DNA from: Bernardetiaceae bacterium | GTDB lineage: Bacteria; Bacteroidota; Bacteroidia; Cytophagales; Bernardetiaceae | DNA: 10,127 nt | Direction: 5' to 3' | NCBI GenBank assembly: GCA_036822015.1 | Contig: DAISIL010000002.1 | Span: 1,141-11,267, forward strand | Shown: piece by piece, positions 1-7,446 of the stretch | How the letters are laid out: every line of letters begins with the position of its first letter | Numbering within the stretch: position 1 is the stretch's first letter | The notes under the pieces: generated by a model | Told to the model about the DNA's origin: nothing | Database searches by the model: none | What the model saw: only the letters and a program-made list of their open reading frames with translations | Program-made: the position numbers and the translations under genes

Positions 1-355
1 CAGTTAAATCTAATTTTCCTGCTAATTTTGTCCAAATATCGTCGATATCTGCTTTCTCGGAAAATATAGCGATAAAGTGAATTGATTCACTGCCACCTAA
101 TTCAGAACGAAACTCTATAGCAGGTAATACAGTAATTTGATTTTGACCAAGTTGCTGTAATTCTTTAATTCTTTGTGTATCCATCCGATGATGGTCGGTA
201 ATTGCAATAACTTTTACATTGTTTTTTACCAATTCATCAATGATATCTTGATTGGTAACACTCTTATCCTGATAGTCATAGGAGCTTGGTGTATGAAAGT
301 GCAAATCCCACTTTGCCCATTCAGAGCCTTTTGGATATGGATTGTATCTTGCCAT
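1..355 (-). CDS. Partial CDS: the N-terminal about 118 aa of a PHP (polymerase/histidinol-phosphatase-like) domain protein. The start is at 355-353 and the gene continues past the left window edge. The N-terminus resembles that of large PHP-AAA-like ATPases.
   Basis: The reverse-complement translation from the ATG at 355-353 reads MARYNPYPKGSEWAKWDLHFHTPSSYDYQDKSVTNQDIIDELVKNNVKVIAITDHHRMDTQRIKELQQLGQNQITVLPAIEFRSELGGSESIHFIAIFSEK... with no stop before position 1. DLHFHT (PHP motif I), AITDHH (motif II) and an IEF glutamate (motif III) are visible. The six-frame track omits it only because the ORF is open at the window edge. GC is about 34% by hand count of nt 1-120, against about 55% in later genes. 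Confidence 0.6.
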   Translation of the reverse strand, partial: MARYNPYPKGSEWAKWDLHFHTPSSYDYQDKSVTNQDIIDELVKNNVKVIAITDHHRMDTQRIKELQQLGQNQITVLPAIEFRSELGGSESIHFIAIFSEKADIDDIWTKLAGKLDLT

Positions 356-2259: not shown

Positions 2260-3072
2260 TTATTCATCTTCAATGATCTGTACGACACGTATCAGCGAGG
2301 AAGCACTAAAAATACCCAAACCGCCATTGCTGATGTTGGTGCGTGGATTGACGGGTGGCGGCGAAAACAAACCACCGTCGTTGCCCGCCAGGCTCAACAG
2401 ATCGCTATAATAATCGAAGACATCTTCATTGATCGAGTACTGCTCCAAAGCCACCGTATCGCCCAGATCGAAGGCGTAGGGAAGTTCTAGGTTTTCGATG
2501 TTGTCCTGGACAAAGCGATCATCGGCGAGCAAAATATCATCGAAGCCATCAAATAGGCTGTCATTGAGATAGACCCTCCAGCGATAGAAGTTCTTTTCGT
2601 TGGGGGGTTCTTTGGCAAAAAAGTACAGGTAATACCCGTCGTCTCGGAACGGCCGGCCGGCTACATAGCGCACCGTCAGGGAGTCGATTTGGGTAACGGG
2701 TAGGAGTTGGGAGCTAGCCCTAAAAAATTCTTCCTGGACTTGTACCGAAAGGCTATACGTGCGCCCGACCTCTCCCTTGAAGGCGGGGTCTGTGGGGACG
2801 TAAAAGCCCGGGCTGTCCTCCCGAAAGATCATTTCGTTGCCCGTATCGTCGCTTATACTCACCTGGGCCCCCGAGATGCGGGGGGCTTGCGTAGGGTTGT
2901 AGAAATCAAGAGATTGGGTAAGGATGACCCAGGAATAGCCCACCGTATCCACGACCTGCCCTTGTATGACAACGAGCGGTTCCTCCATGCTGCGGAGGGG
3001 TAAGTCGATCACTTGTTCGCAAGCGGTGAGCAGGGTACCGATCATCAAAATCCATACAAAATAAATGCGCAT
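2260..3072 (-). CDS. Lipoprotein, DUF4249-like
   Basis: 270 aa. The lipobox LLTAC follows a hydrophobic leader (MRIYFVWILMIGTLLTAC). The C-terminal NGGLGIFSASS resembles the conserved C-terminal GLG(I/V)FGA motif that I associate with DUF4249 lipoproteins. The domain assignment comes from memory of the family, not from a search. Confidence 0.55.
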   Translation of the reverse strand: MRIYFVWILMIGTLLTACEQVIDLPLRSMEEPLVVIQGQVVDTVGYSWVILTQSLDFYNPTQAPRISGAQVSISDDTGNEMIFREDSPGFYVPTDPAFKGEVGRTYSLSVQVQEEFFRASSQLLPVTQIDSLTVRYVAGRPFRDDGYYLYFFAKEPPNEKNFYRWRVYLNDSLFDGFDDILLADDRFVQDNIENLELPYAFDLGDTVALEQYSINEDVFDYYSDLLSLAGNDGGLFSPPPVNPRTNISNGGLGIFSASSLIRVVQIIEDE

Positions 3073-3179
3073 CTGTTTTCTTGTTTTGATTACTCTTCTT
3101 ACAAAGAGGCTTTGTAGAGCAAAAAGTTGCTTGATGGTTCGTATTTTTTTTTTCGCTATCTTGCCTCAAATTATCATGT
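3073..3179. promoter_or_regulatory. Divergent promoter region between the lipoprotein gene and the SIR2-like gene
   Basis: 107-nt non-coding gap. It has a short imperfect hairpin (acaaag-agg-ctttgt near 3100-3114) and a T10 run at 3144-3153. No confident promoter hexamers. Confidence 0.25.
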
Positions 3180-4286
3180 ATGCCCGTTAAGCCACCCGAT
3201 CAAGTAAACTGGGATTTTATTGTAGAAACGATCCGTACCGAGCGTTGTGTGTTGATGCTAGGCCCTGAGGTGGCGCGTAATGCCGAGGGCTTATCGCTTT
3301 ATCAGTCGCTCCTGGAAAGCCTCGACCTAAGCAACCAGGCAAAGGTACGTTATTACAACGACGATGAGTTTTTTTTCTTTCGCGACCCTTTGGCCAAAAC
3401 GAGGGCCGTTTTTGATATTCAGCAGTTTTATGCTCGGCATAGTCCCTCGCCGCTTTTTGAGCAAATTCTCCAAATTCCTTTCCATCTGTGTATCTCTGTT
3501 TCGCCGGACTTGATGCTGCGTCAGTCTTTTGAGCAGTACAACTTGCCCCATCGCTTCGACTACTACCGCAAGTACGAGAACCCCCAAGCGATCGAACGTC
3601 CTACGCAAGATTATCCCCTGATCTACAATCTCTTTGGTGCTATTGAGGATGATGAATCGCTGATCTTTACCCACGAAGACCTCTTCGAGTTTTTGTTCGC
3701 CATCCTGGGGGATCGGAAGCTACCACGCGGGCTGGAGAGCCAACTCCAAAGTGCCAAAAACTTTATTTTTTTGGGCTTTAAGTTCGATAAATGGTACGTT
3801 AAGTTGCTCTTGCGTTTGTTGAGTTTGCATACGGGAAACTTCTTGCGCTACGCTTCTTATAGCCAGGATTCGGTCGAGACGCTCAACTTTTGTATGGATC
3901 ACTTTCGGATTGATTTCATTGACCTAAGCATGGATGATTTTGTTCAGACCCTCTACGACCGCTGTCAGGAACGCGGGATGCTCCGCCCACTCTCGACGAG
4001 CGATACCGTACAAACGCCCTGGGAAATCATCCAGGGATACATCCGAAAAGACGAAGTGAAGGCGGCTTTGCTCAAAATCGAAAGCTACCTAGCTCCCCTG
4101 CCCCAGGAGGAGGAACTCCTCACGACGCTCACCCTGCTGATGAGCCGCTACAACCGCCTCCAGCGAAAGATCACCAATGGGGTCATCGACGAGGACGAAT
4201 CCGAACGCCAACTCAACCGCATCAAACAAGATGTCCTTAGCCTCGGGGAAGCCCTCCAGGAAATACTTGAAGAACAGCAGCTATAG
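3180..4286 (+). CDS. Divergent, probably catalytically inactive SIR2-like (ThsA-type SIR2_2 fold) domain protein with a C-terminal helical module that resembles an effector-associated coupling domain
   Basis: 368 aa with an ATG at 3180. Four blocks align with ThsA-type SIR2_2 landmarks. CVLMLGPEVARNAEGLSLYQSLL aligns with IFAGAGLSMS...WAKLL. FHLCISVSPDLMLRQSFE aligns with HTYWTTNYDRLIEKALE. LIYNLFGAIEDDESLIFTHEDLFEF aligns with VVYKMHGDVEHPSEAVLIKDDYEKY. KNFIFLGFKFDKWYVKLLLRLL aligns with KTFLFVGFSFTDPNLDYILSRV. The catalytic Asn and His positions read P and F. Residues about 280-368 (IQGYIRKDEVKAALLKIESYL...LLMSRYNRLQRKITNGVIDEDESERQLNRIKQDVLSLGEALQEIL) form a helical module. Confidence 0.7.
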   Translation: MPVKPPDQVNWDFIVETIRTERCVLMLGPEVARNAEGLSLYQSLLESLDLSNQAKVRYYNDDEFFFFRDPLAKTRAVFDIQQFYARHSPSPLFEQILQIPFHLCISVSPDLMLRQSFEQYNLPHRFDYYRKYENPQAIERPTQDYPLIYNLFGAIEDDESLIFTHEDLFEFLFAILGDRKLPRGLESQLQSAKNFIFLGFKFDKWYVKLLLRLLSLHTGNFLRYASYSQDSVETLNFCMDHFRIDFIDLSMDDFVQTLYDRCQERGMLRPLSTSDTVQTPWEIIQGYIRKDEVKAALLKIESYLAPLPQEEELLTTLTLLMSRYNRLQRKITNGVIDEDESERQLNRIKQDVLSLGEALQEILEEQQL

Positions 4287-4291
4287 CCACC

Positions 4292-4666
4292 ATGGAAAGC
4301 ACCTTGCATTTGGCAGATAACCTGCGTTGGCTGCGCCAGGAACACGACCTAACCCAGGATCAGCTGGCCCAGATACTCGACCTCAAGCGCAACACCATCA
4401 CGGCTTATGAGAGCCAAAGAAGCCTACCGCCCCTGCCCATCTTGATTCGTTTGGCGGGATACTTTCAGGTGAGCATCGACCATCTCTTATTCTGGGACTA
4501 CAAAGCCGATGCCCCCATAGATGATACACCTGCCGCTTCCGAACGCGAAACCTTGCGCCAGCACTACGAAGCCTTACAGATCGCGTACCTACGTCAGGAG
4601 ATTCACTGCCGCCAGGAGATCATACGCCTCAAAGAAGAACTCCAACAACTCAAGGGCGATCTTTGA
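4292..4666 (+). CDS. XRE-family helix-turn-helix transcriptional regulator with C-terminal coiled-coil
   Basis: 124 aa. LRWLRQEHDLTQDQLAQILDLKRNTITAYESQRSLPPLPILIRLAGYFQVSIDHLLF is a canonical HTH_3 (Cro/C1-type) domain. The C-terminal about 50 aa (ERETLRQHYEALQIAYLRQEIHCRQEIIRLKEELQQLKGDL) is heptad-like. The start lies 5 nt after the stop of the 3180..4286 gene, which implies co-transcription. Confidence 0.8.
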   Translation: MESTLHLADNLRWLRQEHDLTQDQLAQILDLKRNTITAYESQRSLPPLPILIRLAGYFQVSIDHLLFWDYKADAPIDDTPAASERETLRQHYEALQIAYLRQEIHCRQEIIRLKEELQQLKGDL

Positions 4667-4862
4667 GCGGGCAGGTATTGACCCCAATCAGGGTGTATAG
4701 CCCACAAAAGCGAACCGTCGCCGTGGCGGCCAGGGCAATGCCCCCAACCAAGACAACCCAGCCTAGGGTTCCGGCAACGACTCCACTGGCGTACAAGACC
4801 ACCAAGATAAGGGCTACGGCGTAGCGGATCAGTCGGTCTATTTTTCCTACGTTTGTTTGCAT
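4650..4862 (-). CDS. DUF2892 / YgaP-like small inner-membrane protein
   Basis: 70 aa. The N-terminal NVGKIDRLIRYAVAL matches the DUF2892 GxxDRxxR signature. It has two TM helices and a C-terminal Cys-Pro (NTCPL). Its 3' end overlaps the convergent HTH gene by 17 nt. Confidence 0.75.
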   Translation of the reverse strand: MQTNVGKIDRLIRYAVALILVVLYASGVVAGTLGWVVLVGGIALAATATVRFCGLYTLIGVNTCPLKDRP

Positions 4863-4953: not shown

Positions 4954-6108
4954 TTATTCCACCATGAGCAGCGGCTGGGGCGTAAAGCAAAGCACAAAGA
5001 CTACCAGAGCCAGCACACCCAACGCCTTCCTGATCGGGCTAAGCGGAACAGACTCCTCTGCCCCCGGATGAGAGATACCCACCACACGCCCCAGCAAAAA
5101 ACCAAACAACAGCCAGGCATGGTAGCCCTCAATGCCTGGAAACAAAGCCGCAATACCCCATTGGCACAAAACCAGCACCAGAGCCACCACCAAAGCCGCC
5201 TGCCAGTGCCGAAACTCACGCGCCCATACCCAGTACAGATAGCCCACATACAAGATAAAGCCCGTCGGAGATTCCCATACATCGGATACCGAAAACAGCC
5301 CCAATCCCGCATAGCCCAAAAAGACAAAGAAAAACAGCCGTGCAATGCGCTGATGCCAGCGGTAGCCCACCAGCCCATAGAGGACGTGTCCGCCGTCGAG
5401 TTGGCCGATGGGCAGTAGGTTGAGGGCCGTAAAAAACAAAGCCAGATAACCGGCCAGCAAATACGGGTAGTGCATGATCTCGAAATCATTGGGGAGCAAT
5501 GCCGGATCTGCGACCCAATATTTGAACGCCTCAAAAAGCAGATTTGTGCCCAGCCGAACGCCACCCTCGGGGGCATCCTGATACACGTGATCGGCATAAG
5601 CCAGACCATACTGGGCATACTCGGGATGAATCTCGAAGATATGCTCGGCGGGCGGCAAAAAAGTAAATCCGTACCACAACACACCCAATGCTACCACAAA
5701 GCCCGCTAGTGGCCCCGCAATCCCGACATCAAAATACACCTTCCGAGACCATATCCGGCTCCTGATACGGATAAACGCGCCCATTGTCCCGATGGAAGGC
5801 GCACCCGCAAAAAGTGGTAAAAAGCCCAACCAAAGCGGAATGTAGTACGGCAAGCTGACCCGCAGCCGGTGGTATTGCGCCACAAAGTAATGCCCAAACT
5901 CATGTACGGTCAGGATGCCCAAAAAAGGGATCGAGTAATGTAGCCCATCCCAAAAGTGCGCCCACGTCAGGGCAGGTGAAACCCAAAAAAAAGGCCGCCC
6001 CCATATCCACTCTGCCCCCGCAAATGTCGTAGCAATGAAGGTCAGGAGGAAGAGCAGGGGATGCAAAAGCAAGCGAAGCAAGGGGCGCATAGGGGGCGAT
6101 GTTTTCAC
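4954..6108 (-). CDS. Site-2 protease family (M50) intramembrane zinc metalloprotease
   Basis: The HEFGH (HExxH) motif sits in a TM helix, with NLLPIGQLDGGHV (the LDG motif) downstream and multiple TM segments. A GTG at 6108-6106 overlaps the upstream methyltransferase stop as GTGA, an arrangement typical of translational coupling. An in-frame ATG at 6090-6088 (MRPLLRLLL...) is the alternative start. Confidence 0.85.
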   Translation of the reverse strand: MKTSPPMRPLLRLLLHPLLFLLTFIATTFAGAEWIWGRPFFWVSPALTWAHFWDGLHYSIPFLGILTVHEFGHYFVAQYHRLRVSLPYYIPLWLGFLPLFAGAPSIGTMGAFIRIRSRIWSRKVYFDVGIAGPLAGFVVALGVLWYGFTFLPPAEHIFEIHPEYAQYGLAYADHVYQDAPEGGVRLGTNLLFEAFKYWVADPALLPNDFEIMHYPYLLAGYLALFFTALNLLPIGQLDGGHVLYGLVGYRWHQRIARLFFFVFLGYAGLGLFSVSDVWESPTGFILYVGYLYWVWAREFRHWQAALVVALVLVLCQWGIAALFPGIEGYHAWLLFGFLLGRVVGISHPGAEESVPLSPIRKALGVLALVVFVLCFTPQPLLMVE

Positions 6109-6771: not shown

Positions 6772-7446
6772 TTACAAATTTTCAAAGAGGCGGCGTTTGA
6801 GCTGCTGAAATTCTTCTTCGGAGATTGTCCCTGCCTGGCGGAGTTCCATCAGTTCGTTGAGGCGATCCAGGGGGTCTTTGGCGGCGGTGGGTTGTACTTC
6901 TACCTCTACTTCGTCGGCCTCAGAAAACTCATCCTGGGCAGCCTTGCCCCGCTTGACAAACTCGTCCTGCATCTGTCGGGCAAACTGCTTGCCCTTCTCA
7001 AACTCCTGCTGATAAAAGCTCTTGACGGCTTCGGCATCGAAGTCCTCCAAAGTGCCGCCTTTCTCAAAATGCGTTACAAAAACACGCCCCGTCGCGTAGG
7101 TAGAAGCCCCCGAAAGGATCGCCATACTGACCCCGCCCACGACCGCACCCACGCCCGGAATCATCTTGATTGCCTGTGATCCCAACTTAGGCAACGCACT
7201 GCCAGCCAGTGTATTGAGCCAGGATTCTAGGTTGCGACGACGAAAATCAACGCCATAGATTTTACACAACTCATGTACCATATCTATTTGGATCGCCGTA
7301 ACGGCTACCATATCGGCCAGTGGGATCGGAATCAAGCCGGCCCCCAACGACCAACCTACCGATCGCTCCACGATACGCTCTGCCCGCTCGTTATCGGTAT
7401 CCATGCCCATTTTTTCCTTGAACTTATAGAAGAGATAATCTAACAT
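6772..7446 (-). CDS. DUF697-like domain protein with acidic linker and C-terminal SHOCT domain
   Basis: 224 aa. GWSLGAGLIPIPLADMVAVTAIQIDMVHELCKIYGVDF resembles the DUF697 (YcjF-like) core. The C-terminal DPLDRLNELMELRQAGTISEEEFQQLKRRL is a SHOCT (short C-terminal) motif. Between them is an acidic linker, EFSEADEVEVEV. It is the first gene of the minus-strand three-gene operon. Confidence 0.6.
   Translation of the reverse strand: MLDYLFYKFKEKMGMDTDNERAERIVERSVGWSLGAGLIPIPLADMVAVTAIQIDMVHELCKIYGVDFRRRNLESWLNTLAGSALPKLGSQAIKMIPGVGAVVGGVSMAILSGASTYATGRVFVTHFEKGGTLEDFDAEAVKSFYQQEFEKGKQFARQMQDEFVKRGKAAQDEFSEADEVEVEVQPTAAKDPLDRLNELMELRQAGTISEEEFQQLKRRLFENL

Follow-up and report, generated by a model that had tools for sequence, protein, structure and literature searches.

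A gene for a SIR2-like protein, followed at close range by a gene for a small XRE-family regulator in a Bernardetiaceae MAG, raises the question of whether the two form a self-contained conflict module, as a sequence-only reading of this DNA had proposed, or whether the larger gene has other partners. The whole stretch of DNA analysed, 10,127 nucleotides in length, is referred to here as the window.

Gene content of the locus

The SIR2-like-EAD11 gene (3180..4286, + strand; MGF1533698.1) encodes a protein of 368 amino acids and is followed after 5 nt, on the same strand, by a gene (4292..4666; MGF1533699.1) coding for a 124 amino acid XRE-family HTH protein with a Pfam HTH_3 domain. Both ORFs, their sizes and their spacing are as the sequence-only reading had described them. 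Identical gene arrangements are found in two independent assemblies (L001 and L002), and the locus is therefore not an assembly artefact. Upstream and divergent lies a gene (2260-3072, - strand) for a DUF4249 protein with an N-terminal LLTAC lipobox, while a convergent gene downstream (4650-4862, - strand), which overlaps the 3′ end of the HTH gene by 17 nt, encodes a YgaP-like_TM protein (PF11127), a family which we take to be the former DUF2892. The divergent lipoprotein gene and the convergent DUF2892 gene named in the earlier reading are thus both present.

The AT-rich stretch between the SIR2-like gene and the divergent DUF4249 gene (3073..3179) has a GC content of 0.33, compared to approximately 0.50-0.57 in the genes, and is presumed to contain the promoter of the SIR2-like/HTH transcription unit. 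No convincing operator-like palindrome is found in this region, its weak and imperfect inverted repeats of 12-13 nt being of a kind that chance could readily produce, and a scan of the region for sigma-70 promoters, a model inapplicable to Bacteroidota, found nothing. No terminator was found between the SIR2-like and HTH genes, and scanning the window with Rfam and for tRNA genes gave no matches.

By Pfam, the genes around the pair are housekeeping genes, among them that for a membrane-embedded M50 peptidase of the housekeeping type, encoded convergently at 4954-6108. A metagenome scan for synteny by means of this flanking peptidase retrieved 80 loci (best identity approximately 55%), none of which shares the DUF4249, YgaP, methyltransferase or DUF697 genes. 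At its left edge, approximately 2.8 kb from the pair, the window carries the low-GC N-terminus of a TrlF/Ppl-like ATPase. The composition and codon usage of both the SIR2-like and the HTH gene match those of their neighbours, giving no sign that either was transferred recently.

Domains and active-site pocket of the SIR2-like protein

The N-terminal part of the 368 amino acid protein (100% identical to P0001) forms a SIR2-fold Rossmann domain (amino acids 1-270; 3180..3989, + strand), as determined from Foldseek matches to ThsA, KomC and DSR2 and from profile alignments to ThsA and KomC. A Pfam SIR2_2 match (amino acids 110-220; 38.2 bits; cutoff 24.5) and the fold both place it among the defence-type SIR2 proteins. 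The AF2 model (pLDDT 91.5) finds its best PDB matches in ThsA, KomC, DSR2 and SIR2-HerA (Foldseek E 2e-10 to 1e-6), in keeping with the ThsA-type N-terminal domain that had been read from the sequence. ThsA of the Thoeris system is the best structural match (E 2e-10) and the only protein in the PDB to be matched significantly by sequence profile (E 2e-6), and shares the SIR2_2-type Rossmann domain as well as the Y-x-x-x-G and GF-F motifs. Unlike in Thoeris, the protein contains neither a SLOG nor a Macro domain by Pfam, and neither a ThsB nor any other TIR gene was found in the window. PADLOC and NCBIfam assign the protein to no known defence system, with only weak matches to LmuA and ThsA (PADLOC ThsA E 0.038), and PADLOC holds no model for the family.

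The helical C-terminal domain, recognized but left unnamed in the earlier reading, is an EAD11 adaptor domain (amino acids 280-362; 4017..4265, + strand; Pfam PF19964, E 4e-13), a four-helix module with helices at residues 280-289, 293-304, 311-332 and 338-367 of the AF2 model. The Pfam match (amino acids 284-357; 49.5 bits; cutoff 26) lies C-terminal to the SIR2-like domain, and its above-threshold score, terminal position and fusion to a domain of enzymatic type all agree with the assignment. Identification of EAD11 shifts the logic to be expected of the locus from that of a toxin-antitoxin pair to one of adaptor-mediated assembly.

The SIR2-like domain is degenerate, as had been suspected. 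In profile alignments S108 stands at the position of ThsA N112 and F152 at that of ThsA H152 and KomC H146, while the NAD-binding loop GAGLS (GAGxS) is changed to GPEVA, so that the protein lacks the catalytic Asn and His and the GAGxS loop of the defence SIR2 NADases (ThsA N112/H152; KomC N107/H146). Where the His would stand, the 86 family members have F (63), C (10), L (6), T (3), A (2), V (1) or M (1) and in no case H, while S (36), N (29) and T (20) are found at the Asn position. The pocket is otherwise strongly conserved: G28, P29, D110, Y149, N150, G153, D167, G199, K204, W205 and Y206 are kept in at least 77 of the 86 members, with Y149, G153, G199, K204, W205 and Y206 present in all 86, N150 in 84, D110 in 79 and D167 in 77. 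To our knowledge, every characterised defence SIR2 NADase requires the His (ThsA H152, DSR2 H171, KomC H146), and the PDB matches include structures mutated at these very residues. The automated label 'SIR2 family protein' invites the assumption of NAD+ depletion, and the sequence-only reading had likewise regarded the protein as a potential NAD+-depleting effector; the residue analysis weakens this assumption and renders it unsafe, because the catalytic His is lost throughout the family and the Asn in the window copy. Given its strong conservation in the absence of the catalytic His, the pocket is less likely to be that of a ThsA-like NADase than to bind a nucleotide or an NAD-like ligand or to support some non-canonical activity.

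Homologous loci and EAD11 partners

The SIR2-like family comprises at least 881 clusters at 50% identity, and the hosts of the relatives belong largely to Bacteroidota lineages (Saprospiraceae, Lewinellaceae, Cytophagales and Chitinophagales), which include many filamentous or aggregating forms. An nSTAND1 (NLR-like) NTPase gene is adjacent to the SIR2-like gene in 73 of the 76 informative distinct homologue loci, downstream in 72 and upstream in one, and the immediate downstream gene encodes a large NTPase in nearly all homologue loci. The gap between the two genes has a median of 10.5 nt over the 72 HMM-called pairs, 19 of which overlap. Pfam confirms the nSTAND1 domain in L003, L004, L009, L010, L019, L026 and L030, the first of which is the closest relative of the window locus (74% identity) and carries nSTAND1 downstream with no HTH gene. 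The C-terminal regions of the nSTAND1 proteins vary across loci and include WD40, TPR, FGE-sulfatase/CLec and TM/coiled-coil regions.

Only three of the 76 informative loci are orphans with no adjacent nSTAND1. The window locus is likewise an orphan, with no nSTAND1 gene found by HMM in its 10 kb and only noise in a tblastn search for STAND remnants with five partners (best E 0.02), and its SIR2-like gene is thus a homologue of a system component rather than a complete system. A second EAD11 protein was also not found within the window. A profile search with 30 SIR2-linked nSTAND1 domains retrieved 2,657 clusters, and among the best 120 of these 2,657 none is tied to MGF153xxxx or to Bernardetiaceae.

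Extra EAD11 proteins, namely EAD11-TIR, CHAT-EAD11 and EAD11-unknown, are encoded in 12 distinct homologue loci, while approximately 60 of the 73 operons encode no second EAD11 protein. The terminal module on the constant SIR2-like (SIR2L) core also differs, giving SIR2L-EAD11, SIR2L-EAD7, SIR2L-TIR and TIR-SIR2L architectures. The TIR domain of the EAD11-TIR protein in L015 shares 41% identity over 202 amino acids (E 3e-55) with the TIR that L034 carries as a fusion to its SIR2L core, and the conserved Glu motif is retained in both fused and partner TIRs. SIR2L-EAD11 units are duplicated in tandem in P0206 and P0205, the latter an nSTAND1 fused to two such units; this fusion is seen in one representative only and might reflect an error of assembly or a frameshift. 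EAD11 is found on none of 84 nSTAND ORFs, and the SIR2L protein is therefore the EAD-bearing constant component. Together, the fusions and the extra operon genes point to the SIR2-like core as the probable partner of the NTPase and to EAD11 as the probable recruiter of effectors. The defence-type SIR2 fold, EAD11 and the nSTAND1, TIR and CHAT protease genes in the operons of relatives also bear out the earlier placement of the protein in the biological-conflict repertoire, and the window gene would represent a partial member of a predicted conflict system.

The nearest counterparts are the EAD-coupled STAND/NTPase conflict systems (Kaur, Burroughs, Iyer and Aravind 2020, eLife, PMC7159879; Kaur 2021, eLife, PMC8195603), for which inactive enzyme domains are a hallmark (PMC7159879). 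Likenesses extend to the small helical effector-associated domain on the window protein, the nSTAND1 genes with variable C-termini (WD40, TPR, FGE/CLec) in the operons of relatives, the further effectors (TIR, CHAT) that bear the same EAD11, and the typical loss of catalytic residues. In published EAD systems, such as an nSTAND1-EAD8 and trypsin-EAD8 locus (PMC10907252), the NTPase bears the EAD, whereas here EAD11 resides on the SIR2-like protein, and the window locus, in contrast to these systems, contains no NTPase gene. We found the SIR2L-EAD11/nSTAND1 arrangement described in none of the main texts searched, searching full texts for 'EAD11' returned no relevant paper, and no experimental work on the SIR2-like family was found in the papers searched. 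AVAST type 5 (Avs5) and other SIR2-STAND fusions, DSR1/DSR2, SIR2-HerA and KomBC likewise pair a SIR2 domain with a controlling NTPase or sensor, and DSR2, KomC and SIR2-HerA share the fold, all three being among the top PDB matches. The SIR2 domains of Avs5, DSR1/DSR2, SIR2-HerA and KomBC, however, keep the catalytic His and deplete NAD+, while the family described here has no His. Furthermore, the SIR2 domain of Avs5 is fused to the STAND N-terminus, whereas the partners here are separate polypeptides (with one fusion, P0205), and the STAND partner is of another clade, nSTAND1. The family combines near-constant association with nSTAND1 in the loci examined, loss of the NADase residues and an invariant pocket. 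From its fusions and operons a testable wiring can be drawn up for one branch of the NLR-like systems that Kaur et al. predicted, leading from a sensor NTPase by way of a SIR2-like hub to a TIR or caspase tagged with EAD11.

Role of the window copy and of the HTH gene

At all 57 columns with a family conservation of 80% or more the window copy follows the consensus, to which it is as close as the best of the members linked to nSTAND1; comparison with its closest relative gives a pN of 0.16 and a saturated pS of 0.75 (pN/pS approximately 0.22). Judged by these comparisons, the gene is intact and under purifying selection. We consider it probable that it encodes an orphan SIR2-like-EAD11 subunit of an nSTAND1-type, NLR-like conflict system that acts in trans. 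Family-wide, the SIR2-like gene lies directly upstream of nSTAND1, and the SIR2-fold core would be the constant partner of the NTPase, with the terminal module on this core (EAD11, EAD7 or a directly fused TIR) providing a variable output. The variable C-terminal regions of nSTAND1 are the presumed sensors; on sensing an invader the NTPase would oligomerise, and homotypic EAD11 pairing would then draw in an EAD11-tagged TIR, CHAT protease or unknown module. Because the NTPase gene is missing from the window yet the subunit is intact and under purifying selection, the window protein most likely finds its partners in trans, in an nSTAND1 and/or EAD11 proteins from other parts of the genome, where the EAD principle explicitly permits EAD copies to reside (PMC7159879).

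As a more tentative and more specific extension, the His-less SIR2 fold could possibly serve as an adaptor or ligand-sensing hub with no NADase activity, coupling nSTAND1 to interchangeable death effectors, either directly, by a fused TIR, or by EAD11-EAD11 pairing with TIR or caspase-like (CHAT) proteins. If so, ASC/MyD88-type adaptors would have a bacterial counterpart in this hub, made from a retired enzyme fold, and stand-alone copies would be trans-acting hubs common to several sensors, that of the window being under a private XRE regulator.

Rather unlikely, in our estimation, is an autonomous enzyme with a non-canonical site formed by N150, D110, D167 and Y149, in which EAD11 would serve only to let the protein oligomerise with itself or build filaments, as ThsA and KomC do, making the protein a stand-alone effector whose expression is controlled by the HTH protein. 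In favour of this reading, a pocket so nearly invariant in the 86 members points to ligand chemistry and not to a dead scaffold, and helical filaments are, according to the PDB titles, the activated form of the closest structures, ThsA and KomC. Given the scarcity of second EAD11 proteins in the operons, EAD11 may often pair with itself, and SIR2L-EAD11 units duplicated in tandem occur as well. The characterised defence SIR2 NADases that we know of nevertheless all need the missing His, and a family that almost never occurs apart from nSTAND1 makes autonomy atypical. An orphan subunit acting in trans remains the reading that we favour.

The HTH protein bears on an alternative that we hold to be unlikely, in which the pair is self-contained and consists of a toxic SIR2-like effector and an XRE antitoxin or repressor, comparable to the HigBA gene order or to a CapH-like regulator. 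As in such type II toxin-antitoxin and CapH loci, a small XRE HTH gene is tightly linked downstream of a larger effector-like gene, on the same strand and with no intervening terminator. The HTH_3 match covers amino acids 11-65 (nt 4322-4486; E 6e-13), and a single-sequence AF2 model of low overall confidence predicts a long C-terminal helix at amino acids 82-123 (nt 4535-4660). This helix fits the coiled-coil tail described earlier. Pfam searches of the two proteins return SIR2_2 and EAD11 in the large one and HTH_3 in the small one. The tail could serve dimerisation or partner binding; it was rejected as a cryptic EAD11 (score approximately 0 bits), and this dissimilarity to EAD11 counts against the pairing. 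Matches of the HTH protein in NCBIfam, PADLOC and PHROG are generic, restricted to the N-terminal part (amino acids 2-108 at most) and under the curated NCBIfam cut-offs. Below threshold, the HTH protein weakly resembles RstR (51.8 bits; cutoff 80), the families of HipB, PezA and MqsA and, by a generic HTH match, capH (E 2.6e-5), all of them XRE antitoxins or repressors.

In favour of the two-gene reading, a precedent has been published in DGR 8, a related conflict locus where an HTH gene stands in place of a core component (PMC10907252). Against the two-gene module, no relative of the window HTH protein is encoded within ±10 kb of the 81 other distinct homologue loci (0/81), in a jackhmmer search over all locus ORFs with this single HTH seed, which gained no added members and excludes homologues of this HTH rather than every HTH; nSTAND1 is the conserved partner instead. 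Furthermore, no relative is detectable among 5.8 billion proteins, the sole match being the protein itself, and there is thus no co-evolving pair. The earlier proposal of a self-contained SIR2-like and XRE module, with an HTH gene as a regular neighbour, does not survive this survey, as the homologues usually lack it. In contrast to type II toxin-antitoxin systems, conserved co-occurrence is absent, the HTH protein is a singleton in which only the HTH domain finds matches, and the missing catalytic His and Asn make toxicity through NAD depletion doubtful. Unlike in CapH/CapP operons, no CapP-like gene was found in the window, where the M50 peptidase gene is convergent and of housekeeping type, and no PADLOC system model matches.

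On the evidence of these surveys, the SIR2-like and XRE genes do not make up a new, conserved system of two genes, and the HTH gene is a lineage-specific acquisition and one-off neighbour rather than a conserved system component; since it is not a conserved unit, the pair is unsuited to catalogues of candidate defence systems. Some functional tie between the two genes is likely, because their 5-nt spacing is tighter than is usual for chance adjacency. The HTH gene is most likely co-transcribed with the SIR2-like gene as a lineage-specific regulator, its product most plausibly regulating transcription of the SIR2-like/HTH unit.

We regard as improbable the last alternative, that the SIR2-like gene has been without function since an adjacent nSTAND1 gene was lost and persists as a relic, with the HTH gene adjacent only incidentally: the window contains neither a STAND gene nor a remnant of one, the neighbourhood is of housekeeping type and the neighbour-like codon usage indicates that the arrangement is not recent, but the ORF is of full length with all 57 conserved columns intact, the low pN against a saturated pS indicates purifying selection, and so long a residence with no decay speaks for a function.

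The SIR2-like and HTH proteins

The 368-aa SIR2-like protein is encoded at 3180-4286 (+; deposited as MGF1533698.1) and the 124-aa XRE HTH protein at 4292-4666 (+; MGF1533699.1), with a gap of 5 nt between the two ORFs, in a Bernardetiaceae MAG (Cytophagales, Bacteroidota). Both ORFs and their flanking genes, a divergent DUF4249 lipoprotein gene and a convergent YgaP-like (DUF2892) gene, were correctly placed in the sequence-only reading, and the same pair occurs in two independent assemblies derived from other sequencing runs (L001 and L002). No terminator-like site was found between the two genes, suggesting that they are likely co-transcribed. The region upstream of the SIR2-like gene is AT-rich, with no convincing operator. 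In GC3 and codon usage the two genes resemble their neighbours, which argues against a recent insertion of this arrangement, and a search for a syntenic empty site found none. The 3′ ends of the HTH gene and the YgaP-like gene overlap by 17 nt (4650-4666), and no intrinsic terminator for either gene is detectable.

By Pfam profile score, the 368-aa protein is a member of both the SIR2_2 (aa 110-220) and EAD11 (PF19964; aa 284-357; E 4e-13) families. The latter match corresponds to what had been described as a helical domain of about 90 aa; the domain stands, but belongs to a named family of effector-associated domains (EADs). With 43 homologues as input, AlphaFold2 gives a confident model (pLDDT 91.5) that in the PDB most closely resembles the defence sirtuins ThsA, KomC, DSR2 and SIR2-HerA. 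The 124-aa protein contains an XRE/HTH_3 domain (aa 11-65; Pfam), followed in a low-confidence single-sequence model by one long C-terminal helix (aa 82-123). No relative besides itself was found among 5.8 billion proteins. NCBIfam, PADLOC and PHROG give it only generic matches, which extend no further than aa 2-108 in its N-terminal part and score below the curated cut-offs of NCBIfam.

Linkage to nSTAND1 NTPases and variable terminal modules

Homologues of the 368-aa protein were collected (n = 82), and gene neighbourhoods were surveyed by scripted ORF calling and searches with HMMs built for this analysis. The survey covered 80 loci taken, with 10 kb on either side, from the species representatives of GTDB, and in addition the contexts of the closest relatives. 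Counting that of the window, these loci encode 82 distinct SIR2-like proteins; five loci stop at a contig edge. Of 76 informative loci other than the window's, 73 have an adjacent gene for an NLR-like STAND NTPase, nSTAND1, which lies directly downstream on the same strand in 72 and upstream in one, with Pfam adding two cases to those of the custom HMMs (L009 and L026). The gap has a median of 10.5 nt, with 19 overlapping pairs (72 pairs called by custom HMM). No HTH relative was detected by phmmer or jackhmmer in any locus besides the window's own copies, and in the closest relative (L003; 74% identity to the window protein) the next gene encodes a 627-aa nSTAND1 protein, with no HTH. Homologues of the large protein thus usually lack a neighbouring HTH gene, an outcome that the sequence-only reading had itself listed as counting against its proposal, and the self-contained SIR2-like/XRE system proposed there is not a real conserved feature.

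The SIR2-like gene is an orphan in three of the 76 loci (L046, L063 and L055), with no nSTAND gene within ±10 kb. Convergent housekeeping genes follow it in L046 and L063. In L055 (11145-12815), the SIR2-like-EAD11 gene is followed by one for a 556-aa TPR and adenylate/guanylate cyclase protein (Guanylate_cyc: E 5.7e-52; PADLOC PycC-like: 2.3e-13), an alternative partner which might tie the module to cyclic-nucleotide signalling. The 10-kb window likewise contains no nSTAND gene, STAND remnant or second EAD11 protein. Its other genes are of housekeeping type, encoding an alpha/beta-hydrolase, FMN reductase, M50 peptidase, methyltransferase, DUF697-SHOCT protein, COX3-like protein and T9SS CHU_C protein. 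The 224-aa DUF697 protein with C-terminal SHOCT (6772-7446, -) is unrelated to the SIR2-like/HTH pair, and its gene shares 14 nt with the methyltransferase gene upstream. At 1-353 (-), about 2.8 kb from the pair, a gene for a PHP-domain protein runs past the left edge, leaving 118 N-terminal residues in the window; these match the TrlF-family AAA-like ATPases (NCBIfam NF045780; E 1.5e-31) and, less strongly, anti-phage Ppl (PADLOC; 5.8e-10). The gene's GC content is 0.37 vs 0.50-0.57 elsewhere in the window, and it was probably acquired horizontally and is possibly defence-related.

The SIR2-like family is large, comprising at least 881 clusters at 50% identity (E<=1e-30). Hosts in the examined loci are mostly Bacteroidota (Saprospiraceae, Lewinellaceae, Cytophagales and Chitinophagales), with a minority in Brocadia, Pyrinomonadaceae, Gemmatimonadota and Rhodothermales. 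Family members share a constant SIR2-fold core but differ in their terminal module, which is a C-terminal EAD11 in the majority, and otherwise EAD7, a C-terminal or N-terminal TIR or an unassigned tail. The nSTAND1 C-terminal regions also vary (WD40, TPR, FGE/CLec or TM-coiled-coil), and none of 84 nSTAND ORFs carries EAD11 (best E 0.02, database of 84 sequences). One nSTAND1 partner (L009:3612-6413) ends in an FGE-sulfatase (C-type-lectin fold) domain, a sensor type hypermutated by diversity-generating retroelements in multicellular bacteria (PMC10907252). Several genomes have three or more paralogous SIR2-like-EAD11/nSTAND1 loci, among them one Saprospiraceae MAG (L027, L030 and L079) and one Bacteroidota MAG (L068, L082 and L083); L009 and L013 belong here too. 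These paralogues are consistent with sensor diversification, and such genomes show that EAD11 proteins of different loci coexist in one cell.

A further EAD11 protein is encoded in 12 distinct loci. This is an EAD11-TIR protein in L015, L022, L073, L078 and L081, a CHAT-EAD11 protein in L064, and in L004, L062 and L065 a protein joining EAD11 to an unknown module with a conserved '...WF-LPQ(V/I)P..L' end, a tail with no Pfam assignment. Small divergent EAD11 genes, all on the minus strand, lie beside the SIR2-like-EAD11/nSTAND1 operon in L004 (8996-9736), L062 (4802-5395), L065 (9318-9893) and L043 (2329-3162), their products having an N-terminal EAD11 followed by an acidic helical linker; the L043 ORF call reads through the tail point, and the duplicate locus L044 has a shorter ORF. 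The TIR of the separate L015 EAD11-TIR protein shares 41% identity over 202 residues (E 3e-55) with that fused to the SIR2-like core of L034, suggesting that the same effector is attached either covalently or via an EAD11 on each protein. Furthermore, of the rare long family members, P0205 (1158 aa) combines nSTAND1 and two tandem SIR2-like-EAD11 units in one polypeptide, while P0206 (645 aa) has two SIR2-like units with EAD11 in between and P0242 (572 aa) one SIR2-like domain and two EAD11 stretches, each architecture being seen in one representative and a possible assembly artefact. The L015/L034 match and the P0205 fusion provide 'Rosetta-stone' links between parts of the system, and fit the principle of Kaur et al. 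that one EAD copy resides on a constant component and others on effectors encoded adjacently or elsewhere in the genome (PMC7159879). Twelve EADs and nSTAND1 have been described (PMC8195603).

The SIR2 pocket and the role of the window protein

Profile alignment to ThsA is significant (E 2e-6), and a weaker alignment to KomC gives the same residue mapping. The catalytic Asn (ThsA N112, KomC N107) is replaced by S108 and the catalytic His (ThsA H152, KomC H146) by F152, while GPEVA aligns with the GAGLS loop. Over 86 family sequences, no His occurs (0/86) at the His position, which is F, C, L, T, A, V or M, and the Asn position holds S in 36, N in 29 and T in 20 sequences. As judged from these alignments, the SIR2 domain of the family is not a canonical NADase, and NAD+ depletion by the window protein is no safe assumption. 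Even so, a set of residues located where the Rossmann strands end on their C-terminal side (G28, P29, D110, Y149, N150, G153, D167, G199, K204, W205 and Y206) is essentially invariant, indicating a pocket that was repurposed and did not decay, possibly to bind a ligand without catalysis. A conserved Glu-containing motif (CMYEM/CMFEL/CLFEL) is kept by both the fused and the partner TIR domains; we take this Glu to be catalytic, as in TIR NADases. Enzyme domains without catalytic activity that serve as binders or dominant negatives are typical of these conflict systems (PMC7159879).

The window protein differs from SIR2 NADases in lacking their catalytic residues and from a complete nSTAND1 system in lacking an adjacent nSTAND1 gene, and the pair lacks the defining features of Thoeris, type II toxin-antitoxin and CapH/CapP systems. 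In a described nSTAND1 example the NTPase itself bears the EAD (EAD8; PMC10907252), whereas here it is carried by the SIR2-like protein. Neither the SIR2-like protein nor its nSTAND1 partners have a PADLOC model, and no description of the SIR2-like-EAD11/nSTAND1 arrangement was found in the literature searched. We classify the window locus as an incomplete representative of an already computationally predicted conflict-system type.

On balance, we consider it fairly probable that the 368-aa protein is an orphan, a stand-alone copy of the SIR2-like-EAD11 subunit found in NLR-like nSTAND1 conflict systems. Following gene-neighbourhood and fusion logic, the NTPase would sense an invader, presumably via its variable C-terminal region, and then engage the constant SIR2-like core, with the terminal module providing the output, either as a fused TIR or as an EAD11 recruiting TIR, CHAT or other effectors through EAD11 pairing. 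In this genome the subunit would most probably act in trans with partners encoded elsewhere, and the XRE protein, likely co-transcribed with it, would be a lineage-specific regulator. An autonomous non-canonical enzyme, self-assembling through EAD11, would accord with the invariant pocket and with the absence of a second EAD11 protein from many operons, but is unlikely given the near-obligate nSTAND1 linkage. The 5-nt spacing suggests some functional tie between the two genes, yet a toxin-antitoxin or defence pair confined to this single lineage is distinctly improbable, having no comparative support and a supposed toxin without catalytic residues. That the SIR2-like gene is a functionless relic is highly doubtful, as the window copy is intact, deviates at 0/57 columns of >=80% conservation and shows pN 0.16 with a saturated pS of 0.75 against L003, which points to purifying selection.
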